From an uncultured Bacilli bacterium (GTDB taxonomy: Bacteria; Bacillota_I; Bacilli_A; RF39; UBA660): a DNA stretch of 47,773 bases. The position numbers were made by a program, and so were the translations under genes. The stretch's first letter is position 1; every line of letters begins with the position of its first letter. The stretch covers positions 1 to 47,773 of the forward strand of contig CANQYK010000003.1 in the NCBI GenBank assembly GCA_947628065.1, written 5' to 3'. The notes beneath the pieces are model-generated. The model did not search any database. It was not told the origin of the DNA and worked only from the letters and a program-made list of their open reading frames with translations. Positions 6,495 to 28,760 of this stretch are shown piece by piece.

Positions 6495-7181
6495 GTGAGT
6501 ATAGTGGAGAGAACAGTGAAAAATTGGCAAGAAGAATACCATGAAATAGAAGAGTACCAGAGGGTCTTTTATCTTATGGATTCAACTATGAAATACATTC
6601 ATGAAAATAATTATCAGATTGCAAATTTTGATGGCAATGAAATTATTCTTGGTTTTGATGATCAGACAAAAGAAATTAATTATGTTTTGTATCAAAGTCT
6701 TTTACCTTTTTCAAATGAAGCTGTAGAAGAGATGCATCGAAATATTTATAATCTTGCTTTTTTAGCAATCGGAATTTATAGTTCAACCCTTCCTTATTTA
6801 AAACCAGAGTTTTTAAAGGAAAATTTTAGTCAATTTGAATATTCTCTACCAAAAGATGATATTCGCTATTACCGGGATGTGATTACTAGAAATAATTACT
6901 TTTATTATAGTGATTTTGTAAATGCTCGAAATGAAAGAGAAATAAATACCATCAATAAGGATCTTGAGAAATTAGATGGGAATGGTTCTAGTAAAGGAAG
7001 AAGTATGACAAAAGCAACTGTAGCAGGGCGTTATATGAGTGATGCTTATGATCATGCTTTTACAAGTGATGATAATAAGACAGCTGCTTTTGTAACTAGA
7101 TTTGTATTATCCTTTATTATTATTGCACTTAGTTTATTGATTCCAATTATGGCATATATTTTTGGAATGATAGGAAAGTAA
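6495..7181 (+). CDS. hypothetical protein with C-terminal membrane anchor
   Basis: 228-aa ORF ending in a hydrophobic helix (FVLSFIIIALSLLIPIMAYIFGMI). Confidence 0.7.
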   Translation: MSIVERTVKNWQEEYHEIEEYQRVFYLMDSTMKYIHENNYQIANFDGNEIILGFDDQTKEINYVLYQSLLPFSNEAVEEMHRNIYNLAFLAIGIYSSTLPYLKPEFLKENFSQFEYSLPKDDIRYYRDVITRNNYFYYSDFVNARNEREINTINKDLEKLDGNGSSKGRSMTKATVAGRYMSDAYDHAFTSDDNKTAAFVTRFVLSFIIIALSLLIPIMAYIFGMIGK

Positions 7182-7211
7182 AAGACTGCTTCAAATGGAA
7201 GTAGTCTTTTT
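7181..7211 (+). terminator. intrinsic terminator (second copy at ~7895-7925)
   Basis: AAAGACTGCTTC-aaatg-GAAGTAGTCTTTTT hairpin directly after the stop codon. Confidence 0.8.
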
Positions 7212-7268
7212 CCTAGAAAAACTAACAATATTCTTTTCCTTTTATTAGAAATAATAAAGGAAAGAAAT

Positions 7269-7374
7269 AAAAAAGTACCGAATCATCTTTCAAATAAAGA
7301 TTAAGTAAACCAAGTTATTCAAAATACTTAATCCAATGGGAGATGATTTTTTGCTTAAGATTACTCTTAAGCTA
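7269..7374 (-). ncRNA. candidate antisense antitoxin RNA, type A copy 1
   Basis: Minus-strand promoter TTGACC-17-TACGAT with TG extension (7408-7380), 5' hairpin GCTTAAGA-GTAA-TCTTAAGC, and 3' hairpin with U6 overlapping a 5'-truncated, frameshifted toxin copy. Confidence 0.6.
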
Positions 7375-7460
7375 TACTAATCGTATCATAGGTTTTCTTA
7401 TTGGTCAATTTTTTTGCGTTATTTTATATACGGGAAAAGCTTAAATTTATAATTGTTCGA

Positions 7461-7489
7461 TTGTATTTTTTGTTTGCTTTTGTTAGAGT
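7461..7489 (+). promoter_or_regulatory. promoter of toxin mRNA B1 (copy at 8176-8204 for B2)
   Basis: TTGTAT-17bp-TAGAGT with TG extension; the predicted start (~7496) coincides with the segment that pairs with the mRNA 3' end. Confidence 0.6.
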
Positions 7490-7578
7490 GAATTTATGGA
7501 GTATCTGGTTAGTTGTACTTCCTCCCTTTTTGAATAAATATTTTAAATTTTAACTTTTAAATGGGAGGTGGTAGTTTT

Positions 7579-7695
7579 ATGGGAATTTTAATATTATTTT
7601 TTCTTGAAAAACTAACTAACATTCTTTTCCTTTTGTTAGAAATAATGAAGGAAAAGAATAAAAAAGTACCTAATCACCATCCTACAGAAGATTAG
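7579..7695 (+). CDS. 38-aa hydrophobic peptide, candidate type I toxin (MGILILFFLEKLTNILFLLLEIMKEKNKKVPNHHPTED)
   Basis: Strong RBS GGGAGGTG (7563-7570) complementary to upstream CCTCCC (7521-7526); hydrophobic N-terminal half and lysine-rich tail. Below the ORF-track cutoff. Confidence 0.75.
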   Translation: MGILILFFLEKLTNILFLLLEIMKEKNKKVPNHHPTED

Positions 7696-7775
7696 GTACA
7701 ACAACCAAACATCTTGGAAGTACCTAACCTCAGGGGGTAGATACTCCTTTTTATTGTATGAGATTTCTCTCATCT
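7660..7775 (-). ncRNA. candidate antisense antitoxin RNA B1
   Basis: Minus-strand promoter TTTACA-17-TAGAAT with TG extension (7810-7782), 5' hairpin ATGAGA-GAAA-TCTCAT, terminator GTACCTAATC/GATTAGGTAC plus U6 inside the 3' end of the peptide ORF. Confidence 0.7.
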
Positions 7776-7908
7776 ACTTGCATTCTATCATAAAAGAACT
7801 TGCTTGTAAATAGAAAAATTTGTCTGATCCTTTCTTATTATTGCTCTTAGTTTGTTGATTGCAATTATAGAATATATTTTTTGTTAGGAAAGAAAAGGAC
7901 TGCTTCGA

Positions 7909-8019
7909 ATGGAAGTAGTCTTTTCCCTAGATAAAATTACCAACATTCTTTTCCTTTTATTAGAAATAATGAGGGAAAAGAATAAAAAAGTACCTAATCA
8001 TCTTTCGAATAAAGATTAA
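7909..8019 (+). pseudogene. 5'-truncated toxin paralogue (MEVVFSLDKITNILFLLLEIMREKNKKVPNHLSNKD); frameshifted equivalent at 7195-7304
   Basis: Homologous to the 38-aa peptide from codon ~8 onward but lacks the promoter, leader and RBS; its ATG lies in the terminator loop. Confidence 0.6.
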
Positions 8020-8089
8020 GTAAAACAAGTTATTCAAAATACTTAATCCAATGGGAGATGATTTTTTGCTTAAGATTACTCTTAAGCTA
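7984..8089 (-). ncRNA. candidate antisense antitoxin RNA, type A copy 2
   Basis: Promoter TTGACC-17-TACGAT (8123-8095); same hairpins as copy 1. Confidence 0.6.
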
Positions 8090-8293
8090 TACTAATCGTA
8101 TCATAGGTTTTCTTATTGGTCAATTTTTTTGCGTTATTTTATATACGGGAAAAGCTTAAATTTATAATTGTTCGATTGTATTTTTTGTTTGCTTTTGTTA
8201 GAGTGAATTTATGGAGTATCTGGTTAGTCGTACTTCCTCCCTTTTTGAATAAATATTTTAAATTTAAAATTTTAAATGGGAGGTGATAGTTTT

Positions 8294-8410
8294 ATGGGAA
8301 TTTTAATATTATTTTTTCTTGATAAACTAGTCAATATCCTTTTCCTTTTATTAGAAATAATGAAGGAAAAGAAGAAAAAAGTACCTAATCAACCTTCAAG
8401 CAAAGATTAG
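8294..8410 (+). CDS. 38-aa hydrophobic peptide, candidate type I toxin (MGILILFFLDKLVNILFLLLEIMKEKKKKVPNQPSSKD)
   Basis: Paralogue of 7579-7695 with intact frame, same RBS and anti-RBS, and synonymous or conservative changes in the hydrophobic part. Confidence 0.75.
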   Translation: MGILILFFLDKLVNILFLLLEIMKEKKKKVPNQPSSKD

Positions 8411-8490
8411 GTACAATATACAGTATTTTGGAAGTACCTAACCTCAGGGGGTAGATACTCCTTTTTTATTGTATGAGATTTCTCTCATCT
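8375..8490 (-). ncRNA. candidate antisense antitoxin RNA B2
   Basis: Promoter TTTACA-17-TATAAT with TG extension (8525-8497), GAAA-capped 5' hairpin, terminator hairpin plus U6. Confidence 0.7.
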
Positions 8491-8625
8491 ACTTGCATTA
8501 TATCATAAAAGAACTTACTTGTAAATAGAAAATATGTTTGACTACAAATTGAAAATGTGGTAAAGTAATTGTGGTATTTCCAGTAATATGTGTTATACTT
8601 AAAACTTGAGGAAGGTGTAGTATTT

Positions 8626-11445: not shown

Positions 11446-11868
11446 ATGAAGGTTGTAGTGGAAAACAAAGGAAATGAAAGATTAAATCGTTTTTTAGAAT
11501 GGTTACTTTATTTTATTAGTTATTTGATTGTTTTTTATGTTATTTCTTTGTTTTTCAAGTCTTTTTATATCGACCCAAAGCATCCTCTTTTTTATTCTTT
11601 GATTGCAACTTTTCTTTTGTATGTATTAAATAAAACAGTAAAACCTATTTTGTTTACCTTAACAATTCCAATTACTGGAATTACTTTGGGTCTTTTTTAT
11701 CCTTTTCTTAACTTGTTTATTTTAAAACTAGCTGATTGGATGTTAGGAAGTCATTTTAACTTGCTTGATTTTTGGGTAGCGCTTGCGATTTCTATTTTAA
11801 TTTCGGTTACGAACTTTTTAGTAGAAGGTCTTATTATTAAACCGATTATTCGAAGGGTGCAATCATGA
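11446..11868 (+). CDS. membrane protein, phage holin-like YvlD family
   Basis: Four hydrophobic segments and the VKPIL..LTIPIT.ITLGLF motif; usual position near uvrA and lgt. Confidence 0.8.
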   Translation: MKVVVENKGNERLNRFLEWLLYFISYLIVFYVISLFFKSFYIDPKHPLFYSLIATFLLYVLNKTVKPILFTLTIPITGITLGLFYPFLNLFILKLADWMLGSHFNLLDFWVALAISILISVTNFLVEGLIIKPIIRRVQS

Positions 11869-12671
11869 GTCGTGTAGCGCTTGATCTTGGATTTATCCAA
11901 ATATATTACTATACAATCTTTGTCTTTCTTGGTATGCTTTTAGGATGTCTTGTTATATACAAGGAAATAAAAAAAGAGGGCATGGATAGTGATGTTTTTG
12001 TTAATATAGTATTTTATTCTTTGTTGTTTGGATTATTAGGTGCAAGAATTTATTATGTTCTTTTTAATTTATCTTATTATCTTAATAATCCGATTGAAAT
12101 TTTTGAAATATGGAATGGTGGACTTGCTATTCATGGTGGTCTTTTATTTGGACTTTTGGTTCTTCTTTTTTATACAAAGAAATATCATATTCATACATTA
12201 AAGTTTTTCGATATTGTTGTTGTGGGTCTTATTTTAGGACAAGCAATTGGACGTTGGGGAAATTTCTTTAATCAAGAAGCTTATGGTGGTATTACGTCTT
12301 TGAAGGCTTTATCACATCTTCCTAAGTTTATTGTTGATAGAATGTATATTGATGGATATTATAGGCAACCTACTTTCTTTTATGAATCTTGTTGGGATTT
12401 TCTTGGCTTCTTTGTTCTTTTGTTTATCAAAAGAAAGAAATATTTAAAAGTAGGAGAACTTACGGGAAGTTATCTTGTTTGGTATGCTTTTGGTCGCTTT
12501 TTTATTGAAGGGATGCGAAGTGATAGCTTAATGTTAGGTCCTATTAAAATAGCCCAAGTGGTTTGTATTGTTATGATTATAATTGGTATTTATTTCCTTT
12601 TCTTTAAAAGAAGAAAAGATCCCAAACTAGGATCCTTGTACCAAAAAGAAAAATTAATCAAAGAAAAATAA
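11865..12671 (+). CDS. lgt: prolipoprotein diacylglyceryl transferase
   Basis: GARIYYV, GGLAIHGG, GRWGNFFNQEAYG and PTFFYES motifs. Confidence 0.96.
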   Translation: MSRVALDLGFIQIYYYTIFVFLGMLLGCLVIYKEIKKEGMDSDVFVNIVFYSLLFGLLGARIYYVLFNLSYYLNNPIEIFEIWNGGLAIHGGLLFGLLVLLFYTKKYHIHTLKFFDIVVVGLILGQAIGRWGNFFNQEAYGGITSLKALSHLPKFIVDRMYIDGYYRQPTFFYESCWDFLGFFVLLFIKRKKYLKVGELTGSYLVWYAFGRFFIEGMRSDSLMLGPIKIAQVVCIVMIIIGIYFLFFKRRKDPKLGSLYQKEKLIKEK

Positions 12672-12696
12672 AAAAGTACTAGTTTTTGTACTTTTT
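12661..12696 (+). repeat. 36-bp direct repeat (lgt stop and terminator), left copy
   Basis: AAGAAAAATAAAAAAGTACTAGTTTTTGTACTTTTT matches 16562-16597 at 35/36. Confidence 0.85.
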
Positions 12697-12709
12697 CTTT
12701 TGAAAGAGA

Positions 12710-12742
12710 TATTATATTTGTATCAGTAATTATTATTTTCGT
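12710..12742 (-). pseudogene. stub of a PIN-domain gene (ACG-KIIITDTNII)
   Basis: Overlaps the stop of the XRE-ImmA gene; resembles the PIN N-terminal strand and DTN motif; similarity ends near the lgt terminator. Confidence 0.5.
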
Positions 12743-13766
12743 TGTTATATTCATCTATGGTGACCCCCAATAATTCGCAGGCTTTTGAAATAGAAATTAT
12801 TTCATCTGCTTCTAGTTTGTATATGAGTTTTTTAAATTGATATGATTTTTCAGGTTCTATGGGTTTTGGATCCTTTTTTCCAATTTTTTGACTTAAAAAG
12901 ATATTTAAATTTTTATATAAATATTCTGATATGATATTTAAATCTTTTAAACGGTAAATAATAGCTTTATAACTAACTTTGTACTCATTTTTAAAAGCAG
13001 TTAATTCAAAAAAGTTAATATTTTTTCTTGCTTTTCCAAATTCGTTTATTACTGCTTCTTTTGGCATTAACAAAGCACTTGCGAAACGATTGCATAGTTT
13101 TTCATGATCGATTTCTTTTTCTTTTATATTTAAGATCAAATGTCCTAATTCGTGGGCAATTGTAAATCTTTGTCTGGCACCATCTTTTATATTATCTAAC
13201 AAAACAATAATTGGGACATCGTTTACAATTTCACTTAATCCATCAAAATCATCAAAACGGTTATTTGGATTTTTCATTTGAATAATCATGATACCAAGAT
13301 TTTCAAGCATATTCATTAAGTCTGATATTGGTTGTCGATTGGATATTTTTATAAAGTTTCGAAAATCGTTCGCGGCTTTTTCGGCTTCTTCTATACTATT
13401 ACATGGATACGTTTTTAATTTGATTTTTTTTGTATTGGTATCATTTAATTCCATAACTTCAAAGTATTTGGCAACTTCATTTTGAATTAATTCTTCTAAA
13501 AGACTTAGATTCGTTCCTGTTAATCGTCTCTTTTTTCGAAAAGAAGTAAATTTCATTTGTGGTGCATGATATACTTTTAATAGATCAATGGTTTTAACAT
13601 TGTATGCATTTGCGAAAGCGATTACTTTTTTTGAATTTGGTAATATTTCCCCTTTTTCATATTTTGAAATAGCAGTTGCGCTCATATTCAAAAGATTTCC
13701 TGCTTCTCTAAGGGATAGATTTTTTAATAACCGTATTCTTTTTAAATTTTTACCAATTTCATTCAT
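12723..13766 (-). CDS. XRE-family HTH fused to ImmA/IrrE (M78) metallopeptidase
   Basis: N-terminal HTH (LKRIRLLKNLSLREAG..AISKYEKG), RQRFTIAHELGH (HEXXH), EKLCNRFASALLMP; start at ATG 13766. Confidence 0.9.
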   Translation of the reverse strand: MNEIGKNLKRIRLLKNLSLREAGNLLNMSATAISKYEKGEILPNSKKVIAFANAYNVKTIDLLKVYHAPQMKFTSFRKKRRLTGTNLSLLEELIQNEVAKYFEVMELNDTNTKKIKLKTYPCNSIEEAEKAANDFRNFIKISNRQPISDLMNMLENLGIMIIQMKNPNNRFDDFDGLSEIVNDVPIIVLLDNIKDGARQRFTIAHELGHLILNIKEKEIDHEKLCNRFASALLMPKEAVINEFGKARKNINFFELTAFKNEYKVSYKAIIYRLKDLNIISEYLYKNLNIFLSQKIGKKDPKPIEPEKSYQFKKLIYKLEADEIISISKACELLGVTIDEYNNENNNY

Positions 13767-13787
13767 TTGGATCCCTTCTTTCTGTAG

Positions 13788-13821
13788 TTTACATTTTATC
13801 ATTAAAAGATAGAATTGTAAA
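13788..13821 (-). promoter_or_regulatory. palindromic promoter/operator of the XRE-ImmA gene
   Basis: Minus strand TTTACA-17-TAAAAT embedded in the inverted repeat TTTACAttttatc...gatagaatTGTAAA; likely autoregulatory site. Confidence 0.55.
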
Positions 13822-14222
13822 TAAAGAATTTATATAGAAAGAATTATTATTAAAAGGTTAAAATCCCATAAGACCTAGATTATTTGAGCTTTTTTGAATA
13901 CCTTTTTTGTTAATTTTTTTAAATTTGTGATATTATATATTTGCTTGAGACAAATTAAAGAAAAAGAGATTGTTTTATCATTAATGTTGAGGTTTTTAAG
14001 AATGTGATAAACAGTATCTTCAAATTTAATTTATTTTTTTATGCTTTCTTGTAATTCAGTTATAGTAAAATCAAAACTTAAGTTTCCAAATATTGGATCA
14101 TTCCAATTAATCAAATCCTTAATGCCGTTATTTTTATATTTCTTTTTTTATATTTATTGTATAGACAAAGATTCAAAAACGAATTGCTCTTATTATAATA
14201 AATAAGAACTTGAAGTTTTTAG

Positions 14223-14259
14223 ATTTAGGTTGTGGACAAAGTCCTCGGCATGATATAAT
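14223..14259 (+). promoter_or_regulatory. promoter module shared with 27098-27134
   Basis: ATTTAGGTTGTGGACAAAGTCCTCGGCATGATATAAT; 32/37 identical to the second copy; extended -10. Confidence 0.7.
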
Positions 14260-14289
14260 GAATATGTAAAATTGTGCAGGAGGTTAAAT

Positions 14290-15504
14290 ATGATTAGAGT
14301 TGCAACCGTTTTTAGTGGTATTGGTTCTATTGAACATGCTTTGGACAGATTAGATATTCCTCATAAAATAATTTTTGCGTGTGATAATGGAGATATTCCT
14401 GTAGAATATGATGAAAAAAAAGAATTAGAAAAGATTAAAAAAATGAAATCTAAAGTTGAGAAGAAAAAATATGTTGATAAACTATATGCTTCTCAAAGTA
14501 CGAAACAAAATTATGTAAAGAAAAGCTATATGGCAAATTATGATGTTAATGATGATGATTTCCATTTGGATATTAAATTATTAGATGGGACTGATTATAA
14601 GGACCAAGTTGATCTTTTTGTTGGAGGAAGCCCTTGTCAATCTTTTTCAATGGTTGGAAAAAGAAAGGGTTTAGAAGATGATAGAGGTTTATTAATATTT
14701 CAATTTTGTAGATTAGTAAATGAAATACAACCCAAAATGTTTATTTACGAAAATGTTAAAGGCTTATTAAATCATGATGGTGGAAAGACATGGAAGATTA
14801 TTGAAAATGAATTCAAAAAGCTTGGATATAAAATTTCTAAGCAAATAATGAATTCAAAAGATTATGGAATTCCTCAAAATAGAGAAAGGTTATTTGTAGT
14901 AGGATTTAAAGATCATTCTGTTAAATTTAAATTTCCTAAGCCTGTACAACTTGAAATTACAATGAAAGATTTATTAGAAGATAATCCTGATTCTAAATAT
15001 TATTTAAATGATAAAGGAATAGCATTTGTTACAGATAAGAAAAATCTTCAAAAAAGATTTACACAAATAAATGGTGATATAGCACTTTGTGAAAAAGCAA
15101 ATCAACAATTTAATTGGCATGGAGATTTTATTTGTGTGGGTCCTAATGAGGTTGACTCAAAATATTTCTTGTCTGATAAGGTTGCTGATTATGTGATGAA
15201 AACAGGAACAAAGAACTTTTATTCAAAGCCAGAAATAGACTTAGATATTGCAAGACCATTACTTTCAACAATGGGAAAAATGCATAGAGCTGGTGTAGAT
15301 AATTATATTTCCAAAGATAATAAAATAAGAAAGCTTACTCCAAGAGAATGCTTAAGATTAATGGGATTTGACGATAGATTTAAAATCGTTGTTAGTGATA
15401 CACAAATGTATAAACAAGCTGGTAATAGTATTGTTTCAAATAATTTTATTGAAATTTTAAAACAATTAGATATGTCTATTTTTGAGGAGGATTCAAATGA
15501 ATAA
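14290..15504 (+). CDS. DNA (cytosine-5)-methyltransferase
   Basis: FSGIG (motif I), GSPCQSFS (IV), ENV (VI), PQNRER (VIII), RKLTPRECLRLMGF and YKQAGNS (IX, X). Confidence 0.95.
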   Translation: MIRVATVFSGIGSIEHALDRLDIPHKIIFACDNGDIPVEYDEKKELEKIKKMKSKVEKKKYVDKLYASQSTKQNYVKKSYMANYDVNDDDFHLDIKLLDGTDYKDQVDLFVGGSPCQSFSMVGKRKGLEDDRGLLIFQFCRLVNEIQPKMFIYENVKGLLNHDGGKTWKIIENEFKKLGYKISKQIMNSKDYGIPQNRERLFVVGFKDHSVKFKFPKPVQLEITMKDLLEDNPDSKYYLNDKGIAFVTDKKNLQKRFTQINGDIALCEKANQQFNWHGDFICVGPNEVDSKYFLSDKVADYVMKTGTKNFYSKPEIDLDIARPLLSTMGKMHRAGVDNYISKDNKIRKLTPRECLRLMGFDDRFKIVVSDTQMYKQAGNSIVSNNFIEILKQLDMSIFEEDSNE

Positions 15505-16468
15505 TTTTAGATTGAATAATAAAAACTATGAGATTATTGACGCAAAAGAAACGATAACAATACCTGATTGCTTTGTAAAAGATCCGAATAAAATAGGAAG
15601 TGGTCATGGAGAAGCAAAATTATATGTAGGGCAAACTACAGATACAACAACACTAGATTTTTTTAATAACTTTGAAGGAAATATTAAATGTGTTATAAAA
15701 AAAGAAGATTTACAAACGTATTTATTAGACTGTGAAAATGAGTATTTATATCCTGATCAAGAATATAGAAACAAGGATAGGATGCCTGAAATATTTTTAG
15801 AACATAATATTAAGGTATCTAGATTAGAAGAAGAATATTTATATTTTGAAATATATAGAGTTGATGTTAAACCACCAAGAATTTATATTAATTCAAATGA
15901 TAAAGCATATGATGTGATAAGAGAAATATCACTACCAAATATTTCTTATGTTTCCATACTTAAATTAAAAGATTCAAATAATAATTATTTGTTTTACTTT
16001 AGGCCGTTTATCGAATATAATATTGATTCTATTCGTAAAACAGAAGAAATATCAATTGCAGAAGAGGAAAATATTACTACATCTGAAAGAGAATCAATAA
16101 TAAAATCTAGAATTGGACAAGGAAAATATAGAGAAAAGTTGTTAGAAGAATGTCCATTTTGTCCTATTACTATGGTTAATGATGAGAGGTTATTAATTGC
16201 TTCTCACATTAAACCATGGGTAAAATCTAACAAAGAAGAGAAGGTTGATCCTAAAAATGGATTTATGTTAACTCCTACATATGACAAATTGTTTGATAGA
16301 GGTTTTATTTCGTTTGAAGATGATGGAACTATGTTAGTTTCACCATGGATATCTCCTATGAATCAAAAAAGATTAGGTATTTTTAATGGTAAAAAGATTA
16401 AGGCTTTACCTACGAAAGGAAGAGAAAACTATCTTTTATATCATAGAGAATTTATATTCAAAAAATAA
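15497..16468 (+). CDS. HNH endonuclease, probable restriction partner
   Basis: C-terminal RIGQG..R...CPIT...LIASHIKPW...NG..L....DKLFDRG pattern; overlaps the end of the methyltransferase gene. Confidence 0.85.
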   Translation: MNNFRLNNKNYEIIDAKETITIPDCFVKDPNKIGSGHGEAKLYVGQTTDTTTLDFFNNFEGNIKCVIKKEDLQTYLLDCENEYLYPDQEYRNKDRMPEIFLEHNIKVSRLEEEYLYFEIYRVDVKPPRIYINSNDKAYDVIREISLPNISYVSILKLKDSNNNYLFYFRPFIEYNIDSIRKTEEISIAEEENITTSERESIIKSRIGQGKYREKLLEECPFCPITMVNDERLLIASHIKPWVKSNKEEKVDPKNGFMLTPTYDKLFDRGFISFEDDGTMLVSPWISPMNQKRLGIFNGKKIKALPTKGRENYLLYHREFIFKK

Positions 16469-16561
16469 ATTTTTTAATATTAGATCGTTAATTAAAAGTG
16501 GTATATTCAAAAAGTATTTCTCTTTTTTTTAGTTTTTTTGTTGTGTACTAGATTATAAGAT

Positions 16562-16597
16562 AAGAAAAATAAAAAAATACTAGTTTTTGTACTTTTT
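16562..16597 (+). repeat. 36-bp direct repeat, right copy
   Basis: Matches 12661-12696 at 35/36. Confidence 0.85.
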
Positions 16598-16631
16598 TTG
16601 CTTTACAATAGAAGAAAAGGAGAGATTACTT

Positions 16632-19378: not shown

Positions 19379-19477
19379 GATGTATAATTATTGTAAAAAT
19401 TAAGATGAAATATAAAAAGATGTTCCTTTTAACATACATACATGATATAATTGTATGTAGAAAGGAACAAAGAGACA

Positions 19478-20071
19478 ATGAATAAAGAAGATATGATATT
19501 AAATTTGGCGAAAGATAATAATGGAATTATCACTACAAAAGAAGTGGTAAGTAAAAACATAAATAAAGTTTTTTTGACACGATTAGTTAACAATAAAAAA
19601 TTAGAAAGAGTAAAAAAAGGTTTATATGTTTTGCCTTCTACTTGGGGTGATGAATATTTCAATTTAGTTTATGGAAATAATGCAGTTTTTTCTTACGAAA
19701 CATCTTTATATTTTTTAGGCCTTTGTGAATCTGTTCCAAGTGAATATCATATTACAGTAAATAGAGGATATAATGGAAGTTTAAGAAAAATAAAAAAAGT
19801 GAAACTACATTTTGTAAAAAAGGAATTATTTGATTTCGGTATCATTGAGATTAAAAGCCCACAAGGACAGCTTATTAAATGTTATAATGCTGAAAGGTGT
19901 ATATGTGATTTGCTTAAGAATAGAGATCATCAAGATATAGAAACAATTAAATATGCTATAACGGAATATTTGAAGAATAAAAATGAGAGGAATCTTCCTT
20001 TACTTCTTGATTATGCTAAAAAGTTCAATGTTTTAGATGATATTAATAAATATTTGGAGGTGTTAATGTAG
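19478..20071 (+). CDS. abiEi: type IV TA antitoxin AbiEi family
   Basis: N-terminal wHTH (LERVKKGLY), FSYETSLY and ERCICD motifs; ACATACA/TGTATGT inverted repeat around the -10 (19432-19458). Confidence 0.85.
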   Translation: MNKEDMILNLAKDNNGIITTKEVVSKNINKVFLTRLVNNKKLERVKKGLYVLPSTWGDEYFNLVYGNNAVFSYETSLYFLGLCESVPSEYHITVNRGYNGSLRKIKKVKLHFVKKELFDFGIIEIKSPQGQLIKCYNAERCICDLLKNRDHQDIETIKYAITEYLKNKNERNLPLLLDYAKKFNVLDDINKYLEVLM

Positions 20072-20925
20072 TGATTGATGCTGAAGATTTAAAAATTAAA
20101 GTAAAGACCAAAGCTCATGAAAATAGTTCGGAGCCTCAAGATATTATGCAAATGTATTTTTTTGAAAGGCTTTTATATAGAATATCTATAAGTACATACA
20201 AGCATAATTTTATATTAAAAGGTGGATTATTACTATCTGCAATATTTGGCGATGATCGTAGAACAACACAAGATATGGATGCTATGATAAAAGGAATTCC
20301 ACTAGATGTAAAGAAGATAGAAAAAGTTATAAATGAGATAATTAATATAGATTGTGAGGATGGAATAAGTTATCGTTTAAAGAGATCAAGGAAAATAAGA
20401 TTAAATGATAAATATGGAGGAATTAGAGTAAGCTTGATAGGATACAAGGAACATTTACAAGTGCCACTATCTATTGATATAACGGTAGGAGACCCAATTA
20501 CTCCAAGAGAATTAGAATATAGGTATAAATGTATGTTTGATGATTCTTATATTAGTATTATGGCTTTTAATATGGAAACTATTATCGCAGAAAAATTTGA
20601 AACATTCATTTCTGATAATATTATGAATACAAGAACAAAAGATTTTTATGATTTATATATTTTATTAACTAGATATGGTGATAAAATTGATAAAAATGTT
20701 TTAGTAAAAGCAATTAAAAATACTTTTGAAAGAAGAGAAACAGATTTTAATATAGAGAAAATTATGTATGATTTTAATCAAATAAAAGAAAGCGATAGGC
20801 TCATATCAAATTTTAAAAATTATAAAAATAAAAAATCTTATGTATCTAATATTGAATATGATGAAATAATGAAGGCAATTCATTTAGTGATAGAATTATT
20901 ACAAAAAGAATTCATTCCAGTTTAA
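20071..20925 (+). CDS. abiEii: type IV TA toxin AbiEii nucleotidyltransferase
   Basis: ERLLYR, LKGG...RTTQDMD, AEK and TR.KDFYD motifs. Confidence 0.9.
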   Translation: MIDAEDLKIKVKTKAHENSSEPQDIMQMYFFERLLYRISISTYKHNFILKGGLLLSAIFGDDRRTTQDMDAMIKGIPLDVKKIEKVINEIINIDCEDGISYRLKRSRKIRLNDKYGGIRVSLIGYKEHLQVPLSIDITVGDPITPRELEYRYKCMFDDSYISIMAFNMETIIAEKFETFISDNIMNTRTKDFYDLYILLTRYGDKIDKNVLVKAIKNTFERRETDFNIEKIMYDFNQIKESDRLISNFKNYKNKKSYVSNIEYDEIMKAIHLVIELLQKEFIPV

Positions 20926-21018
20926 TAAAAATGGATAAATTTTAAAATTTACCAAAAGAAATAAGTTGATCAAAATAAGAAAGAAACTAGGAAGATATAA
21001 ACTGTTTGTAATTATATT

Positions 21019-21107
21019 AAACCAATCATAAGATAACAAAGTCAGGACTAAATCATCATTTTCGAAAAATAAAAGAATTAGCACTTAAATTAACAGAAAA
21101 TTAAAAA
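21019..21107 (+). pseudogene. duplicate of the whiA 3' end (19287-19375)
   Basis: 84/89 nt identical; three of the five differences are synonymous in the whiA frame. Confidence 0.9.
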
Positions 21108-21181: not shown

Positions 21182-21203
21182 GAAAACGAAAGGATAAATC
21201 TAT

Positions 21204-22454
21204 ATGAAAGAGATACAAAGAGATTTTTATTTAAATCAATTAATAAAGAAAGATGGGAATGGTCAAATAAAGGTTATTACTGGTATTAAAGAAAGTGGAA
21301 AATCCTATTTGCTAAGAAAAATATTTTATCAATATTTATTAAAATATAACGATAAAGATCATATTCTATACATTCCATTGGATATTAAAGAAAATGAACC
21401 TTTTTTAGATGGGAATAAGTTTATTGAATATGTAAAGTCTCTTGTGAAGGATGATAAAAAATATTATTTATTAATTGATGAAATCCAAAAAATGGAAGAT
21501 TTCGTTCCAGTATTAAATACATTTCTTTATGAAGATAATATTGAGGTATATGTGACTGGTTCCAATGCAAACTTATTATCAAAGGATATTGTTACAGAGT
21601 TTCGTGGTAGAGGGGATGAAATACATGTTTATCCACTTAGTTTTCGTGAATACATGAGTGTGTTTGAAGGGGATCAATATGAAGGATATGAACAATATAG
21701 TATTTATGGAGGATTACCTTATACACTTTCTTATGAAACGGATAATGAACGATCTGAATATTTAAAAAATTTGTTTAAGGAAACTTATATTCGTGATATT
21801 GTAGAACGAAATCATATTACAAATGTAGATGAATTAAATGAGTTATTAAATATAATATCTTCACAAATTGGTTCTTTAACAAATCCTCATAATTTACAAA
21901 ATGTATTTAAAAGTGAAAAAAATATTATGTTAAGTGATAAAACAATAAGTAAATATTTGGATTGTTTTGAAGATGCTTTTTTAATAACAAAGGCACAAAG
22001 GTATAATATAAAAGGAAAAAAATATATTAATTCTCCCTATAAATATTATTTTGAAGATTTAGGATTAAGGAATGCTTGGTTAAATTTTCGACAAATAGAT
22101 AAAGGTCATATTATGGAAAATATTATATACAATGAATTGTTAAGAAGAGGATATAATGTTGATGTTGGAGTAGTTGATGTGAGTCAAACAGGAAGTGATA
22201 AGGTTCGTTCGAAACAACAATATGAAGTGGATTTTATTTGTAATTTGGGTAGTAAAAGAATATATATACAATCATCTTATGAAATTACAAACCAGGAAAA
22301 AGAATTGCAAGAGAGAAAATCATTGGTCAACATTGATGATTCTTTTAAAAAAATAATTATTGTTGGTGATGTTAGTAAGCCAAGAATGGATGAGAAGGGA
22401 ATTATAACAATGGGAATTTATTATTTTCTATTAAATGAGGATAGTTTAGATTAA
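21204..22454 (+). CDS. AAA+ ATPase (AAA_14 plus DUF4143 type)
   Basis: GIKESGKS, LIDEIQ, TGSN, YGGLP, KYYFED.GLRN and EVDF motifs. Confidence 0.88.
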   Translation: MKEIQRDFYLNQLIKKDGNGQIKVITGIKESGKSYLLRKIFYQYLLKYNDKDHILYIPLDIKENEPFLDGNKFIEYVKSLVKDDKKYYLLIDEIQKMEDFVPVLNTFLYEDNIEVYVTGSNANLLSKDIVTEFRGRGDEIHVYPLSFREYMSVFEGDQYEGYEQYSIYGGLPYTLSYETDNERSEYLKNLFKETYIRDIVERNHITNVDELNELLNIISSQIGSLTNPHNLQNVFKSEKNIMLSDKTISKYLDCFEDAFLITKAQRYNIKGKKYINSPYKYYFEDLGLRNAWLNFRQIDKGHIMENIIYNELLRRGYNVDVGVVDVSQTGSDKVRSKQQYEVDFICNLGSKRIYIQSSYEITNQEKELQERKSLVNIDDSFKKIIIVGDVSKPRMDEKGIITMGIYYFLLNEDSLD

Positions 22455-23709: not shown

Positions 23710-24864
23710 ATGTCAAATAAAATTGATCAAGATGAATATGAAGAACTAGAAGGAAAATGTAAGAAATTAAAAAGAATTAATAACTGGCTAACTTTTTTTG
23801 TAATTGTTGGAGTTTTCGGTGCTATTGTGGTAATAGAATTGTATTTGCACAAAGATGCTTTTGAAAAAACAAATTTAGCAAAAAAATTAAAATCCTATCG
23901 TAATGAGATTAGTAGTAAATATAATGTTGATACTGAATATGTGGAAAGTGTTCATAATGCTGCTTATAAATTAGATTTATCCTCTGTTGATAAAACCAAT
24001 CAGGGAGTTCATCCTAAAGTGATTAATTTTGAAAAAAAGTGGCATGGATATAAATATTGGATGAGTTTTTCTCCTTATCCTGATGGTAATGATAAATATG
24101 AAAATCCTTATTTGGTAGCAAGTAATGATTTGATTCATTGGGAAGCTCCAAAAGGATTAAAAAATCCAATTGAAGATACACCAAAAGAGTATGAACATGA
24201 AAAAGTATATAATTCTGATCCTCATATTGTATATAATAAGGACAAAGATGTAATGGAACTTTATTTTCGTTATGTTAATGTTAACAAAGATCAAATGATT
24301 TTATATAAAAAGACAAGTAAAAATGGTGTTGATTGGACGGATAAAAAAGAAGTTTTATCCGTAAAAGTATCAAAAAAAGATTATATTTCTCCAGCAATCA
24401 TCTATGATGATGGTATATATAAAATGTGGTATGTTGATAAAAATAGAGTTGTTAAATATACGGAAAGTAAAGATGGAAAAAATTGGAAAAAAGAGCGAAC
24501 AATTATACTTTATTATCCACAAGCTCATCTTACCACATGGCATCTTGATGTAATAAAAACAGAGAAAGGTTATGAATTGCTTTCTGTTGCTTATAAAAAT
24601 TGGAAAGATAGGAATGCTATGAATCTTTATTATTTTAAATCTAAAGATAATCAAGATTATGAACAAGGAATTATTATTTTACGACCATCTTTAATTTCAT
24701 GGGATAATCGTGGTATTTATCGTTCTAGTTTTATTTATGAAAATGGTACTTATTATGTATTTTATTCTGCACTATCTACACAGTTTGAACGTGGAATTGG
24801 ATTCTCTTATGGAGAGCATATAGAAAACTTAGTGGGTAGTAATATCAAAGAAAAAGAAGAGTAA
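23710..24864 (+). CDS. membrane-anchored extracellular protein, probable beta-propeller glycoside hydrolase-like fold
   Basis: N-terminal TM segment; HPKV, ENP, SDP and S.DG..W repeats. Confidence 0.55.
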   Translation: MSNKIDQDEYEELEGKCKKLKRINNWLTFFVIVGVFGAIVVIELYLHKDAFEKTNLAKKLKSYRNEISSKYNVDTEYVESVHNAAYKLDLSSVDKTNQGVHPKVINFEKKWHGYKYWMSFSPYPDGNDKYENPYLVASNDLIHWEAPKGLKNPIEDTPKEYEHEKVYNSDPHIVYNKDKDVMELYFRYVNVNKDQMILYKKTSKNGVDWTDKKEVLSVKVSKKDYISPAIIYDDGIYKMWYVDKNRVVKYTESKDGKNWKKERTIILYYPQAHLTTWHLDVIKTEKGYELLSVAYKNWKDRNAMNLYYFKSKDNQDYEQGIIILRPSLISWDNRGIYRSSFIYENGTYYVFYSALSTQFERGIGFSYGEHIENLVGSNIKEKEE

Positions 24865-24910
24865 TCTTAAAGTTGCTTTTCTTTCTTTGTTTACTGTTAT
24901 AAAATTTGAA

Positions 24911-24992
24911 AATGGAAAAATTTGGTATTTAATAGAGATTTCGTAATTACTTCTTTTACTGAAATAAGATAAAGTTAATACACAATCAAGAA
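24911..24992 (-). pseudogene. degraded acpS fragment, copy 1
   Basis: Aligns to acpS 28574-28702 with deletions; 24926-24971 is identical to 26979-27024. Confidence 0.75.
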
Positions 24993-25214
24993 AATAGGTG
25001 CGTAGTAACGAAAAAAAACAAATTTTTATCAGAATTTTTCTTTCAAATAAAAAGAAAAATGTGTATAATACAAGTGCATTAGATATGTTTAAACTCTTTG
25101 GTTGAAATTTATAATCCAACACATTTTATTTTGTAAGAACTATCTGTAAAAGATAAAGACTTTTTGTCAGAATTTTGATACAATTTAAATAGAATAGATA
25201 AGGTAGGTGATTTG

Positions 25215-26069
25215 ATGGAGAAATATAAAATTAAAAGGGTAGGAACTGATTTTAGATTTATACAAAATGAACCTATCGTGCGTGGTTCACGAAAAAAGAT
25301 GTTAGCTATTACTAATAAATGGGAAATGACTATGTTCAAATATGAACGCGAAGATTATGATTGTAGTGAAGCTTGCTCTGAAAAGTTAGCATATGAGATT
25401 GCAAAAGTTTTGGGATATGGTTGTGCTAGAATTGAATTAGCAGTTGATAATGATAACAAGATAGGAGTTTTAAACTATTATTTTTCTGATAGATTTAATG
25501 CTCCACATACTGATATTGTTGCATATTTAAATAAAAATACTAAGGAGCGAAATAGTTATTATACTATTTCAAATATTAAATCTGTATTGGATGATATAGA
25601 TACTGATTTATTTGGAAATTTTATTAAAATAATGATTTTTGATGCATTAATAGGGGAACAAGATAGACATGAAGAAAATTGGGGAATTACAGAAAAGCAA
25701 GGAAAAAGCTTTATTTCTCCACTATATGATAATGGTGATAGTTTACTAAGAGAGTTTAGAAATATAGACAATGCTCAAAAATATTATGATGGTACAAAAG
25801 ACTTTGATGCATATATAGATAGAAGTCAGACAATAATATACAAGGAAGATAATAAAAGTAAATATAAACATTTTGAATTGATTAAATATTTATACGATAA
25901 TTATCCAAAATATGTTATTCCTGAAATTAATAATTTAAAGAAACTTACTGATGAGATAATAGAAGAAATAGTAAATAAAATACCAGATGAATTGTTGACG
26001 AATGAACATAAAAAATATATAATAATGTACTTAATCAGACGAAGAACCATACTATTAAATATAACGTAA
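25215..26069 (+). CDS. HipA/CtkA-like Ser/Thr kinase
   Basis: MFK..., SEKLAYEIA, DALIGEQDRHEENWG and SPLYDNG motifs. Confidence 0.85.
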   Translation: MEKYKIKRVGTDFRFIQNEPIVRGSRKKMLAITNKWEMTMFKYEREDYDCSEACSEKLAYEIAKVLGYGCARIELAVDNDNKIGVLNYYFSDRFNAPHTDIVAYLNKNTKERNSYYTISNIKSVLDDIDTDLFGNFIKIMIFDALIGEQDRHEENWGITEKQGKSFISPLYDNGDSLLREFRNIDNAQKYYDGTKDFDAYIDRSQTIIYKEDNKSKYKHFELIKYLYDNYPKYVIPEINNLKKLTDEIIEEIVNKIPDELLTNEHKKYIIMYLIRRRTILLNIT

Positions 26070-26084
26070 AAAGAGGTGATAAGA

Positions 26085-26765
26085 ATGAAAGAAGAATTAT
26101 GGCTAATTTGGAAAGATCCAATTTCACGTAGAAGATATAAAATTGGATCATTAATGAAAGAAAATAACAAATATATATTTCATTATGTTAATCCAGAATT
26201 AAATGATGCTAGAACGGTAGGATTTAAATATTTTCCAGGTTTTGAAGATTTAACAAAATCATATGAAAGTGATGTTTTATTTACAAATATTTTAACAAGA
26301 TTACCAAATGAAACAAGGCCAGATTATTTAGAAATTTTAAATTGTTATAATTTGGAAAAAGATTCAAATGATTTTGATATTTTAAAAGCAACACGTGGTA
26401 GAACATTTACGGATAATTATGAATTTGTTCCAGCTTTTGATTCAAGTAAAATTGAGTTTGATGTGGCAGGAACAAGTCATTGTAGTGATGTAAAAGAATG
26501 CATAGAATATCTTAAGGTTAATAAAAAATTATATTTAGATCCAGAACCAGAAAATTTAAAGGATCCCAATGCAATTAAAATTATTTTTAAAGAAAATGGT
26601 AAATCATATCATTTGGGTTATGTACCAAGATATTATTGTAAAGAATTATTAGCAGAATTAAAAAAAGGAACTCAATATTCTGCAATGATTCAAAGCTTAA
26701 ATCTAGAATCACAATTAAGTGATGAGAATATTACTGCTAATGTTAAGCTCATTCTTAATATTTAA
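26085..26765 (+). CDS. HipA-N/HipS-like domain fused to HIRAN domain
   Basis: IG.L...Y.F.Y and F..RLP...RPDY N-terminal pattern; C-terminal F.VAG...EPEN..DPNAI...LGYVPRYY HIRAN pattern. Confidence 0.82.
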   Translation: MKEELWLIWKDPISRRRYKIGSLMKENNKYIFHYVNPELNDARTVGFKYFPGFEDLTKSYESDVLFTNILTRLPNETRPDYLEILNCYNLEKDSNDFDILKATRGRTFTDNYEFVPAFDSSKIEFDVAGTSHCSDVKECIEYLKVNKKLYLDPEPENLKDPNAIKIIFKENGKSYHLGYVPRYYCKELLAELKKGTQYSAMIQSLNLESQLSDENITANVKLILNI

Positions 26766-26788
26766 TTCTAAATACCACATTTAGAAAA

Positions 26789-26817
26789 AGAGTACTAGCT
26801 TTTTGCTAGTACTCTCT
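26789..26817. terminator. hairpin after the HIRAN gene
   Basis: AGAGTACTAGC-T-run-GCTAGTACTCT. Confidence 0.65.
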
Positions 26818-26978
26818 AAAAAAATACATCCTTTTAGTAACTACAATTTTATTAAAATTAGAGTAAAAAATAGAGTTAGCTTTTTGACTAGCTCTGTAGA
26901 ATGCCTAACGACATATTGTATTTAAACAATACCATAAAAAGCATTTCTGCTTTTGTAACAATAATTCTATATTATTGT

Positions 26979-27057
26979 TATTTAATAGAGATTTCGTAAT
27001 TACTTCTTTTACTGAAATAAGATAGTTAGTACAAGATCAAGAAATCGTTTGTCTTTT
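26979..27057 (-). pseudogene. degraded acpS fragment, copy 2
   Basis: 27025-27057 equals acpS 28684-28716 exactly (33 nt); the remainder aligns to 28589-28649 with a deletion. Confidence 0.85.
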
Positions 27058-27167
27058 AGGGGGTGAGTAGTAACTAGAAACTCTCTTTTATTTTAGTATT
27101 TAGGTTGTGAACAAAATCTTTGGAATGATATAATTATAGTATAAATATTATAAGTGAGGTGATTTAC

Positions 27168-28358
27168 ATGAAGCGTATACTTATGAACAAAGATAAAGAA
27201 GTATTGGTTGTTGAATATGATACTGCCTCAAGTGTTTTTATTAGAATATATGAAGTTATAGATATTAACTATGCTCCATATATTTTAAAAAGTTTTTATA
27301 TTGAAGATAATATTAATGATACGCCTTTTAGAACGAATTTAAGTGAATGGTTTAAAGGAAGAGGAATTCCATCATGGCGTGATAGATTAGATTTATTATT
27401 ACATAGACTAAACATAACTGCACCTTATGAATTGTTGGATAAAGCTTTTGGGTTATCTTTATCCGATCAATATTGGTTGAAACCAGAAGGTAGTAATATT
27501 TCTTATGATGATATTAATTTTTTTGATCATGATTTTGATTATGCTGAATTTATGGAAGCATCGTTATCAACGAATAGTAAAACCATTATAAAAGAGTCAT
27601 CTTTAAAGACTCCTAATAACACAACCGATGGAATGCTTAAAAAAGCTTGGATTATTGAAAATGGTACAAGATATTTATTAAAGGGTGGTTATAAAAACGA
27701 AACCTTGCAACCATTTAATGAAGTATTAGCTAGTGAAATATGCAAACGATTAGGGTTTGATCATGTGGAATATACGATAGATACCTATAAAGATATAGTA
27801 GTATCCAAATGTCCTTGTTTTATTACGAAAGATACAGAACTTATTACTTGTTATCAAATTAAAAATGATATGAAAAGGCATGATAATTTAGAAGATTATG
27901 AAGAGTATATTAAGAAATTAGAAGAGCATAAGATAGAAAATGCTAGAGAAAAGCTTGAAAATATGTTTATTTTAGATTATATCATTATGAATGAAGATCG
28001 GCATTTGAATAACTTTGGAATTGTAAGGGATGTTAATACTTTAGAATGGTTAGATGTTGCGCCAATATTTGATAATGGTCAAAGTTTAAATATAGAGTAT
28101 TATGATGATGAAGAGGTACATATTTCAGGTAATGGAAGATTATTTTATGAAATAAAGCCTTTCGATGAAATCATTAAAATTGTAAAAGATTTTAAAAGAA
28201 TCGATATCAGTAAGTTAGATGGTATTGTTGAATGGTTTGATCATTTATTACATCAATATCAAGATTTAACGAAAATGAGTGATAAAAGAATAGAAAGATT
28301 ATGTATTTTATTGAATCGACAAATTAATAAATTAAAAGAATTGATTTTAAATAGTTAA
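27168..28358 (+). CDS. stand-alone HipA-like kinase
   Basis: W...R.IP..R, SLSDQYW, TDGMLKKAW, YLLKG, NEVLAS, NEDRHLNNFG and APIFDNG motifs. Confidence 0.83.
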   Translation: MKRILMNKDKEVLVVEYDTASSVFIRIYEVIDINYAPYILKSFYIEDNINDTPFRTNLSEWFKGRGIPSWRDRLDLLLHRLNITAPYELLDKAFGLSLSDQYWLKPEGSNISYDDINFFDHDFDYAEFMEASLSTNSKTIIKESSLKTPNNTTDGMLKKAWIIENGTRYLLKGGYKNETLQPFNEVLASEICKRLGFDHVEYTIDTYKDIVVSKCPCFITKDTELITCYQIKNDMKRHDNLEDYEEYIKKLEEHKIENAREKLENMFILDYIIMNEDRHLNNFGIVRDVNTLEWLDVAPIFDNGQSLNIEYYDDEEVHISGNGRLFYEIKPFDEIIKIVKDFKRIDISKLDGIVEWFDHLLHQYQDLTKMSDKRIERLCILLNRQINKLKELILNS

Positions 28359-28448
28359 TATAATAATATTCTATTTCAAGTGAAGAAGGATTAATGGAAA
28401 AAATTGGAAATTGTAATACTAAAAAAAGCAGCTTTAGAGTTGCTTTTT

Positions 28449-28760
28449 TTAATCATTTATGATTGCAATTGCCATTGTATAATCTTTTTCATGGGAGATT
28501 GATAGTTTAATAAAGTCTTTTCCAACACAATAAGGACTTCCATCTTCCTTGTTTAATATTTCAAAATCCAAAAAATGGTAATTTTTGGTATTTGGTAGAG
28601 CCTTCATAATTGCTTCTTTTGCTGCAAATCTTCCACATAAATAAGATAGACCTCTTTTTTTGTATTCTTCTTGTTCCTTTTTTGTTAGTACAAGATCAAG
28701 AAATCGTTTGTCTTTTTTTTCTAATCTTTTGTTTTCTACAATATCACAACCAATGTTCAT
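28449..28760 (-). CDS. acpS: holo-[acyl-carrier-protein] synthase
   Basis: IGCDIVE, GRFAAKEAIMKAL and LSISHE motifs. Confidence 0.92.
   Translation of the reverse strand: MNIGCDIVENKRLEKKDKRFLDLVLTKKEQEEYKKRGLSYLCGRFAAKEAIMKALPNTKNYHFLDFEILNKEDGSPYCVGKDFIKLSISHEKDYTMAIAIIND

Follow-up and report, generated by a model that had tools for sequence, protein, structure and literature searches.

The insertion of restriction-modification genes with a long duplication of the target was reportedly described in 2000 by Nobusato et al. (in Gene 259:99), and to our knowledge a mechanism for this footprint, on record since that year, is still lacking. In the parts of the later survey by Furuta, Abe & Kobayashi (2010; PMC2853133) considered here, it appears as a footprint known from many bacteria through work of 2000–2010, and it is recognized by an insert of <20 kb, direct repeats of >30 bp, the lack of a mobility gene, a single copy of the repeat in genomes in which the site is empty, and homologues of both a restriction (R) and a modification (M) gene. 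Among the cases given in those parts are 46-bp repeats that overlap 15 and 2 bp of two Haemophilus genes; they also link such insertions to naturally competent species and propose DNA breakage by the restriction enzyme as a common cause. Here we compare with these insertions a series of defence and toxin operons in a 47,773-nucleotide stretch of DNA from an uncultured Bacilli bacterium (contig CANQYK010000003.1 of assembly GCA_947628065.1, our contig C3; hereafter the window), in which cargo behind the housekeeping genes lgt, whiA and acpS (sites 2, 3 and 4) has a copy of the gene end on each side, and in which a further repeat (site 1) lies upstream of uvrA. Sites 2–4 are probably insertions with long target duplication, made by host recombination or repair and without an element-encoded or site-specific recombinase.

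The window belongs to a 1.55-Mb metagenome-assembled genome (MAG; G000) of 135 contigs, which is 93% complete with 6.7% contamination, and its GC content is ~28%. Repeats were located by self-blastn of the window, domains were assigned with Pfam in a scan of 30 open reading frames (ORFs) within 194-33344, and defence systems were named by PADLOC. The self-comparison recovered, with E values from 1e-9 to 0, all four of the gene-end repeats that had been picked out in an earlier reading of the letters alone (the sequence-only reading), including the lgt end and terminator repeated at 16562 (36 bp, 97%) and the whiA end repeated at 21019 (89 bp, 94%). That reading took all four to bracket cassettes, which is what we find at lgt, whiA and acpS, whereas the site at 7090-8541 is a tandem duplication; its names for the cargo (XRE-ImmA with methyltransferase and HNH, AbiE, and HipA kinases) agree with Pfam and PADLOC. 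Searched against the whole 1.55-Mb assembly, the repeats match no other place above weak similarity and are therefore local target copies, and not dispersed repeats or attachment sites.

Sites 2–4 resemble the inserts described in the portions of PMC2853133 used here in that they are a few kb long and free of mobility genes, carry low-GC cargo and are flanked by direct repeats of variable length; the repeat likewise overlaps the last bases of a gene, here with 36 bp reaching over 11 nt of lgt. The inserts measure 3,865 bp (lgt), 1,643 bp (whiA), and ~1,934 bp and ~1,391 bp (both at acpS), with repeats of 36 bp, 89 bp, ~125 bp and, for the last, a decayed copy of >200 bp in which 33 bp are identical. 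No recombinase or transposase is present among the 30 ORFs scanned, in which transposase families were not searched separately, and six-frame searches with the tyrosine and serine recombinase families PF00589 and PF00239 returned nothing on the window contig, in agreement with the earlier statement that the cassettes lack a recombinase. Only a further site in the same genome, between the LysM and HU genes on contig C4, is fully seen as a single-copy empty site with both flanks (in G002 and G056), and homologues of both R and M genes are found in the lgt island only, the other cargos being AbiE, PDC-M03 and a HipA-like kinase. The screen in PMC2853133, as far as the portions used here describe it, dealt with restriction-modification genes only, whereas the cargo here also includes AbiE, HipA-like/PDC-M03, SoFic, PDC-S01 and PDC-S02; here, too, several events fall within 16 kb, one of them nested in the displaced copy of another. 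Because most of these cargos are nuclease-free (AbiE and HipA, for example), breakage by a restriction enzyme cannot be the general cause. Titles and abstracts of the literature on 'long target duplication' contain no case of non-restriction defence cargo with this footprint, although no search was aimed at such cargo. The kind of event is known, and the label 'lineage-specific' given to it at first does not hold, since the same footprint had been described for restriction-modification genes in many bacteria (PMC2853133, in the portions used here); what is new is that the cargo goes beyond restriction genes, that the events are dense and nested, and that one operon can be tracked across species.

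At site 2, lgt (11865..12671, + strand; Pfam LGT 7e-74) is the target, and the first copy of the 36-bp repeat (12661..12696, +) consists of the last 11 nt of the gene plus a hairpin and T-run. The second copy (16562..16597, +; E 1e-9) has one mismatch, so that uninterrupted matches reach no more than 15 and 20 bp; the leader of trxB comes next, and by eye we place the trxB ATG at 16632. Between them lies the 3,865-bp cargo (12697..16561; 26% GC), in which Pfam and PADLOC, the basis of all cargo assignments given below, identify an XRE-ImmA protein (PADLOC RmrA; 12723-13802, −), a C5 DNA methyltransferase (14272-15504, +; MTase_II 5e-80) and a type II HNH nuclease (15482-16468, +). In the relatives, lgt directly adjoins trxB at 10 of the 11 annotated loci, and in 7/7 read at base level the stop codon of lgt either overlaps the start of trxB or lies against it; the 3,865-bp island is therefore an insertion. 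The hairpin and the 35-bp trxB leader are present in this lineage and lacking in the relatives, so that the exact pre-insertion state is not seen among them. The same junction has received other genes elsewhere: in G015 it is occupied by a GNAT acetyltransferase, and in G020 (L191, G020:C6) the point at which lgt and trxB overlap is taken exactly by a 396-aa ORF without a known family, which has a 14-bp copy of the trxB start on each side and begins with the duplicated first three trxB codons.

At site 3 the target is whiA (18461..19378, +; Pfam scan). The first copy of the 89-bp repeat (19287..19375, +) lies within the functional gene, covers its last 86 coding nt and carries the NHRF motif found in 21/21 relatives; the second copy (21019..21107, +; E 5e-33) has five differences, among them a change of R to H at the conserved NHRF residue, and reaches its stop two codons earlier. 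The longest identical block between the two is 43 bp, and a hairpin (21098-21155) stands after the second copy only. The cargo (19376..21018, +; 1,643 bp, 24% GC) encodes AbiEi (19451-20071, +) and AbiEii (20071-20925, +), with a predicted palindromic promoter/operator region at ~19420-19469. The insert consists of 75 bp, the two genes and 93 bp; here, as in the other cargos, an integrase since lost could not have been accommodated. Both copies have a C-terminal tail that sets this genome apart, and the duplication therefore arose in this or a close lineage. Downstream of whiA, 7 of the 21 relatives compared have a convergent clpP at once and in 10 it comes after 0.4-3.4 kb of varied genes, including those for a PHP protein, a double-HTH protein, an AAA_14-DUF4143 ATPase and AIM24; of the others, 1 has an IS256-type transposase with no clpP within reach, and in 3 the contig ends there. 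A convincing second whiA end was found in 0/21 of them, nor is AbiE present there, and their downstream flank differs from that of this genome.

The AbiE operon itself can be followed across species. Six genomes of Bacilli from the rabbit gut (L154-L159) have copies that agree with it at 88-90% over ~1.5 kb, and in five of these (L154-L157 and L159) the operon follows secA; Pfam confirmed the gene as secA in L154, and a single gene of this genome is matched by the ORF upstream of the operon in each of L154-L157, L159 and L170. Between those secA genes and the secA of this genome the identity is only 70-76%, so the cassette must be much younger than the species split, and the comparison of these identities indicates recent horizontal transfer of the operon between species. 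The genomes that carry the same cassette are uncultured Bacilli or Tenericutes. Other copies stand behind an O-antigen-ligase-like gene, a dnaE-like gene and, in G024 (L162; 79% identity), a Mur ligase gene, where the operon stands between copies of the Mur ligase gene end, 72 bp (89%) and 173 bp (78%) long, that differ at codon positions one, two and three by 5, 10 and 6 substitutions plus indels, a neutral-looking pattern. Tight or fairly tight brackets are also seen in L181 (28 bp), L174 (23 bp) and L154 (91 bp of the secA end), those of L155, L158 and L169 being loose or doubtful, and G047 has a bracketing repeat of 57 bp. The copies are homologous from ~15-45 bp beyond the repeat to the AbiEii stop or a little past it, and what moves is the bare operon with its predicted operator.

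Two smaller observations concern these loci. At the secA sites a 15/16 match to the whiA end recurs at similar spacing; as a remnant of whiA travelling with AbiE it was rejected, the local alignments not exceeding shuffled sequence (at 7 loci, 8 to 285 of 500 shuffles reach the score), and it gives a weak lead for microhomology at the junction only. In L014 (G024:C1), a GC-richer stretch of ~270 bp between AbiEii and the distal Mur copy ends in a hairpin and T-run and could be a small structured RNA.

Site 4 records two insertions, one within the product of the other. The intact acpS (28449..28760, −; Pfam ACPS 3e-14) was the target of the outer, earlier insertion, whose cargo (27081..28448, +; insert about 1,391 bp) encodes a 399-aa HipA-like kinase (27159-28358). 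Beyond it lie two pieces of acpS: fragment B (26950..27080, −), the proximal half of a decayed copy, and fragment A (24855..25015, −), the distal half of the same decayed 3′ copy plus a 22-bp junction that is not derived from acpS. Between A and B is the inner, later cargo (25016..26949, +; about 1,934 bp), with genes for a HipA_C kinase (PDC-M03A; 25212-26069, +) and a HIRAN protein (PDC-M03B; 26076-26765, +). Self-blastn aligns 24922-24993 with 26975-27044 (92%, 72 bp, E 1e-21), 27025-27057 with 28684-28716 (100%, 33 bp, E 1e-9) and 24883-24964 with 28545-28627 (76%). In their acpS-derived middle part the two fragments are 98% alike, with a longest identical block of 50 bp; they have in common two deletions relative to acpS as well as the ~22 bp of non-acpS sequence, and past the common part A runs into more distal and B into more proximal acpS sequence. 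The acpS fragments of the sequence-only reading are thus both real, although they are halves of one decayed copy that came from two nested events. In the order of events we propose, the 399-aa HipA-like cassette would have inserted behind acpS with duplication of >200 bp of its 3′ part; the displaced copy would then have decayed, and the PDC-M03 pair would have inserted into it, duplicating ~125 bp. That A and B have the deletions and the non-acpS junction in common is as expected if the later insertion split an older displaced copy. The nested order leaves unexplained that 33 bp of fragment B match acpS perfectly while the flanking sequence is only 70-76% identical, for which a patch of gene conversion or a crossover would account.

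The 399-aa HipA-like gene has relatives (77-81% protein identity) in other settings. In L015 (G016:C12; 85-2691) a large serine recombinase gene directly precedes it, an assignment checked with Pfam at this locus only, and ORFs of 429-457 aa take the recombinase position in L016, L018 and L019; next, on the other strand, comes a truncated NMT1-like ORF. The HipA-like/serine recombinase unit of these relatives may be a small recombinase-borne element. Upstream of the PDC-M03A gene, a leader of ~130 nt (window 25040-25211) has copies of 83-85% identity on contigs C85, C46 and C131 and of 75-80% in at least 10 relatives; it has no Rfam match and may be a common promoter/operator or a small RNA.

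The whole-genome self-comparison that had been proposed as a check on the first reading, run together with family scans, revealed at least five further recombinase-free brackets in this genome. These are a 112-bp repeat of a LysM-domain gene end around a DUF1016/PDC-S02 cassette (C4), a 35-bp repeat (100%) of an intergenic, promoter-like sequence around a second AbiE operon (C21), a 46-bp repeat of the 5′ half of tRNA-Thr around SoFic (C24), a 44-bp repeat just 3′ of a peptidase gene around an AAA_14-DUF4143 gene (C76), and a 107-bp repeat of an AAA_14-DUF4143 gene end around a 160-aa gene (C83). Partial tandem gene copies (C8, C13, C21), an IS-adjacent pair (C14) and repeats in a choline-binding protein gene were not counted. 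At the C4 site G002 and G056 have a single repeat copy between the LysM and HU genes, with both flanks colinear. The comparison of empty with filled sites in relatives that was suggested at the outset thus shows the lgt island and the whiA duplicate to be absent and the LysM site to be empty, the exact pre-insertion state of lgt being the part not seen; the view that integrase-free cargo accretes at conserved gene 3′ ends is borne out by its recurrence in this genome and in relatives. The C4 cargo (L025, 3815-5492) looks composite by eye, with a DUF1016 nuclease gene between two apparent ends of a Bro-N/ORF6N-type gene, and a second DUF1016 nuclease gene, 87% identical, stands alone on C67 (3793-4930) without flanking repeats.

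Several observations weigh against insertion by host recombination or repair with staggered target duplication. By codon position, the differences between repeat copies number 1, 1 and 3 at whiA and 1, 0 and 5 at the LysM gene, so that 8/11 fall at third positions, where one third would be expected under neutral decay and somewhat more if the working copy drifts, the sample being small; this bias looks like that between two functional alleles, and better fits a single crossover or a later allele replacement. The lgt/trxB junction of the relatives (an overlap without a hairpin) differs from the product that deletion of one repeat and the cargo would give. Clear bracketing repeats stand at only 4/27 AbiE places in the genus, and among 29 further AbiE loci 7 were flagged, some loosely; the many copies without a footprint may be old, may have lost it or may never have had it. 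In relatives the 399-aa HipA-like gene adjoins a large serine recombinase. Finally, neither an empty nor a filled allele from the same species was found in a metagenome scan for CofD, which covered 70 loci with a best protein identity of 67%.

The third-position bias supports the main rival, Campbell-type integration, in which a circle or multimer carrying the cargo plus the target gene end, released in a donor by recombination between repeats, enters by one RecA crossover; we regard this as a serious but unlikely alternative. It would also suit the long identical blocks of 43 bp (whiA), 50 bp (acpS fragments) and 33 bp (fragment B versus acpS) and the presence of RecA and ComEC, and transformation is known to create duplications by alternative pairing in Streptococcus pneumoniae: the sections of Johnston et al. 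(2013; PMC3784515) drawn on here describe transformation-triggered merodiploidy with duplications of 100-900 kb between IS copies. Those duplications are, like ours, direct, recombinase-free and (in that system) RecA-dependent, with repeats that later allow loss or amplification; unlike them, the duplications here are 30-250 bp long and surround a foreign cassette, and homology alone cannot reach a new gene. This last point tells against a crossover of circles, which the sequence-only reading had also offered and for which the third-position bias speaks, since one AbiE operon stands behind secA, whiA, Mur ligase, O-antigen-ligase-like and dnaE-like genes, several with local duplications. In addition, the second whiA copy is not a working allele, with its R to H change at a residue invariant in 21 relatives and its shifted stop; the lgt repeat is short, mostly non-coding and without a long identical block; and the Mur repeat of G024 decays neutrally. 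A search for DprA found none in the assembly, which is 93% complete, so that the proposed check for competence genes yields ComEC and RecA without it. Both routes may operate, with a rare illegitimate step to a new gene followed by homologous spread among strains.

Gene 3′ ends are classic attachment sites, and in e14 and phage 21, which occupy icd, and in the streptococcal CIMEs, integrase-type islands replace the 3′ end of a gene. Our sites are like these in the conserved gene 3′ end, the displaced partial copy at the far end and the possibility of tandem accretion; they differ in that there is no integrase here, none with a matching site in the genome and no common core, the repeats are variable and one duplication is of the 5′ half of a tRNA. 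It is improbable, in our judgement, that the cassettes are remnants of islands without their integrase, or cis-mobilisable elements moved in trans, with the repeats as attL and attR and the gene end replaced by one borne on the element. Recombinases do occur on other contigs of this genome (9 places each for PF00589 and PF00239, counted as 9 tyrosine and ~8 serine recombinase matches), and the HipA-like gene of G016 lies directly behind one, with ORFs in a similar position in three more relatives. Against this, the contig contains no recombinase fragment even in six frames, and none of the repeats recurs in the 93%-complete assembly, so that there is no second att site on a recombinase-bearing element. 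The 9 cargos have neither a common core nor a common end motif, and their repeats, of unrelated sequence, run continuously in length from 23 to >170 bp. The tRNA-Thr repeat is the 5′ half and not the 3′ half that integrases restore, and serine recombinases leave no long duplication. The suggestion of integrases acting in trans accordingly finds no support, there being neither a common core nor terminal repeats.

The same data separate the cassettes from other mobile DNA. Inverted repeats at the termini exceed shuffles in 0/9 cargos (the lowest at 29/200), and duplications that range so widely are not of the fixed length left by a DNA transposon or insertion sequence. Integrons need IntI and attC sites; integron cassettes are alike in being small, promoter-poor or self-contained, and in accumulating in arrays without a recombinase of their own, whereas here there is no tyrosine recombinase on the contig and no end motif or inverted repeat, and the flanks are local target copies. 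The lack of end repeats, of a common motif and of a recombinase remnant, together with the variable repeats, argues against transposons, integrons and integrase sites. A plasmid or phage vector was rejected: none of 4 plasmid and 7 phage records was a near match, the similarity (68-76%) being at the level of genes and covering no more than 28% of the query. The cargo is foreign in composition, with a GC content of 24-27%, compared with 31-35% in uvrA and trxB windows.

In a MAG of 135 contigs with 6.7% contamination, a bracket could in principle be an assembly chimera, in which the gene end of one strain was joined after the cassette of another; the differences between the whiA copies, and between the LysM copies, resemble those of alleles, and several relatives' contigs break just after whiA. 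We hold this to be extremely unlikely, because De Bruijn assemblers create no junction words that the reads lack, because neither the deletions in the acpS fragments nor the identities of 76-89% in the Mur, secA and other repeats are those of strain alleles, and because like architecture is found in independent assemblies from other hosts. Four rabbit gut metagenome runs of one sample contain 99-100% of 1,018 31-mers sampled from 12000-21500, although the sample may be the source of the assembly and so not independent; a further rabbit-gut sample contains 41% of these words. The assembly holds no alternative-allele contigs.

Site 1 differs in kind. Its membrane-protein gene (6495..7181, +; 228 aa, no Pfam match) has its last ~90 nt inside two tandem 715-bp units (7090..8541, +; 7090-7803 and 7804-8517, plus a 24-bp overlap), with 7090-7827 matching 7804-8541 at 91% over 744 bp (E = 0). 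Each unit contains the gene end (90 nt), two paralogous ORFs for small hydrophobic peptides, a terminator and a convergent promoter-like site. The duplicate of the gene end that had been noted earlier is real, but the supposed cargo is repeated with it (in the order a b a′ b′), so that no cassette lies between copies; after the second unit there is no third gene end, and sequence homologous to the region upstream of uvrA in relatives resumes at ~8522. Each of the three borders of the units (~7091, 7805 and 8519) has a similar motif of 11 bases with a single mismatch. We read the site, from the arrangement of its units, as an ordinary tandem duplication in which a gene end and a small-toxin-like module were copied together across an 11-bp microhomology. 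Orthologues of the 228-aa gene lie upstream of uvrA at 9 of the 11 annotated relative loci, with gaps of ~130 to 1,120 bp from which the small-peptide module is absent in all nine.

The module has four paralogous peptide ORFs of 36-44 aa, one of them frameshifted: 7561..7695 (+), which has a Shine-Dalgarno site and encodes a hydrophobic peptide with a charged tail, 7909-8019, 8276-8410 and the frameshifted copy at ~7192-7313. Terminators lie at 7732-7749 and 8446-8463 (across the site, 4 were found where 0.5 were expected from shuffles), and the convergent promoter-like sites at 7810-7782 and 8525-8497. The designation type I toxin-antitoxin given to it earlier fits the small hydrophobic peptides, the terminators and the consensus antisense promoters and finds no family to back it, the peptides having no credible match in Pfam and none in Rfam. 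On contig C31 (6951-8303), three tandem 419-bp units and a partial fourth are 69% identical to the module at window 7423-7787.

Site 1 raises the question of whether all four sites began as local tandem duplications, with later loss or replacement of the second copy of a neighbour. Site 1 is exactly such a duplication, and other contigs of the genome have remnants of partial tandem copies: the 5′ end of a Fic gene on C8, paralogues of ORF6N on C13 and a pair of the AbiL type on C21. As a general account this seems very unlikely to us: it requires two steps at each site, there is no cargo-like sequence past the second repeat at lgt, whiA or acpS, and it leaves unexplained both the single-copy empty sites and foreign cargo 88-90% identical to copies in other species.

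The gene order clpC, cysS, zinc peptidase, mini-RNase III, rlmB, sigma factor, 228-aa membrane protein, uvrA, holin-like, lgt, followed downstream by trxB, cofD, whiA and later acpS, is that of small-genome Bacilli, and the window has no tRNA gene and 0 Rfam matches. Next to the whiA insertion lies an AAA_14-DUF4143 ATPase gene (PADLOC PDC-S01; 21204..22454, +), one of 11 matches to this family in the genome, the maximum among the 53 genomes of the genus, of which the others have 0-8 each. As an insertion agent the family was rejected: it adjoins several repeats here, yet in relatives repeats flank 1/29 of its loci compared with 1/31 housekeeping loci. A promoter-like stretch of 44 bp, 86% identical, precedes both the methyltransferase gene (14217-14259) and the 399-aa HipA-like gene (27091-27134), with a third copy on contig C133; unrelated cassettes carry a common predicted expression signal. 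Elsewhere in the window there is a perfect 37-bp tandem pair (38804-38877), and two paralogous stretches in the polysaccharide-gene part (33357-34506 and 43034-44168) are 66-67% identical and 9.7 kb apart.

How insertion by host recombination or repair might produce this footprint can be set out as follows. Low-GC operons for defence or toxins, 1.4-3.9 kb long and self-contained (promoter plus genes), would arrive as foreign DNA, possibly by natural transformation, given ComEC and RecA, and the host would join the foreign linear operon into its chromosome. Two joints at staggered target positions, made perhaps by a template switch, by microhomology joining on sister copies or by a homology-anchored illegitimate join, would leave the 36 to ~250 bp between them on both sides of the insert. 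Surviving insertions would be those that spare the gene end and terminator, which would be why the cassettes sit just behind housekeeping genes. The distal target copy, being dispensable, would decay and could be hit again, as the PDC-M03 cassette within the displaced acpS copy suggests, and in this way a defence island would grow. The direct repeats would permit loss or amplification by homologous recombination; loss was foreseen in the sequence-only reading, and the identical blocks of 43 and 50 bp noted above fit it.

The finding is descriptive, and it bears on the open question of how defence genes travel without a vehicle. It supplies a dense natural series, with four events in 16 kb (one of them nested) and at least five elsewhere in the genome, and it catches one 1.5-kb AbiE operon behind several housekeeping genes in different species at 88-90% identity; its nuclease-free cargo argues against the earlier idea that the restriction enzyme of the cargo drives its own insertion. 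We suggest, tentatively and as one possibility, that a general recombinase-free insertion pathway resting on transformation or repair operates in small-genome gut Bacilli and, in place of classical mobile elements, moves defence operons between species, in which template switching or sister-copy pairing would make staggered joins at a gene 3′ end or terminator and serial nested insertion would build islands. If true, such a pathway would also explain the restriction-modification insertions in other competent bacteria.

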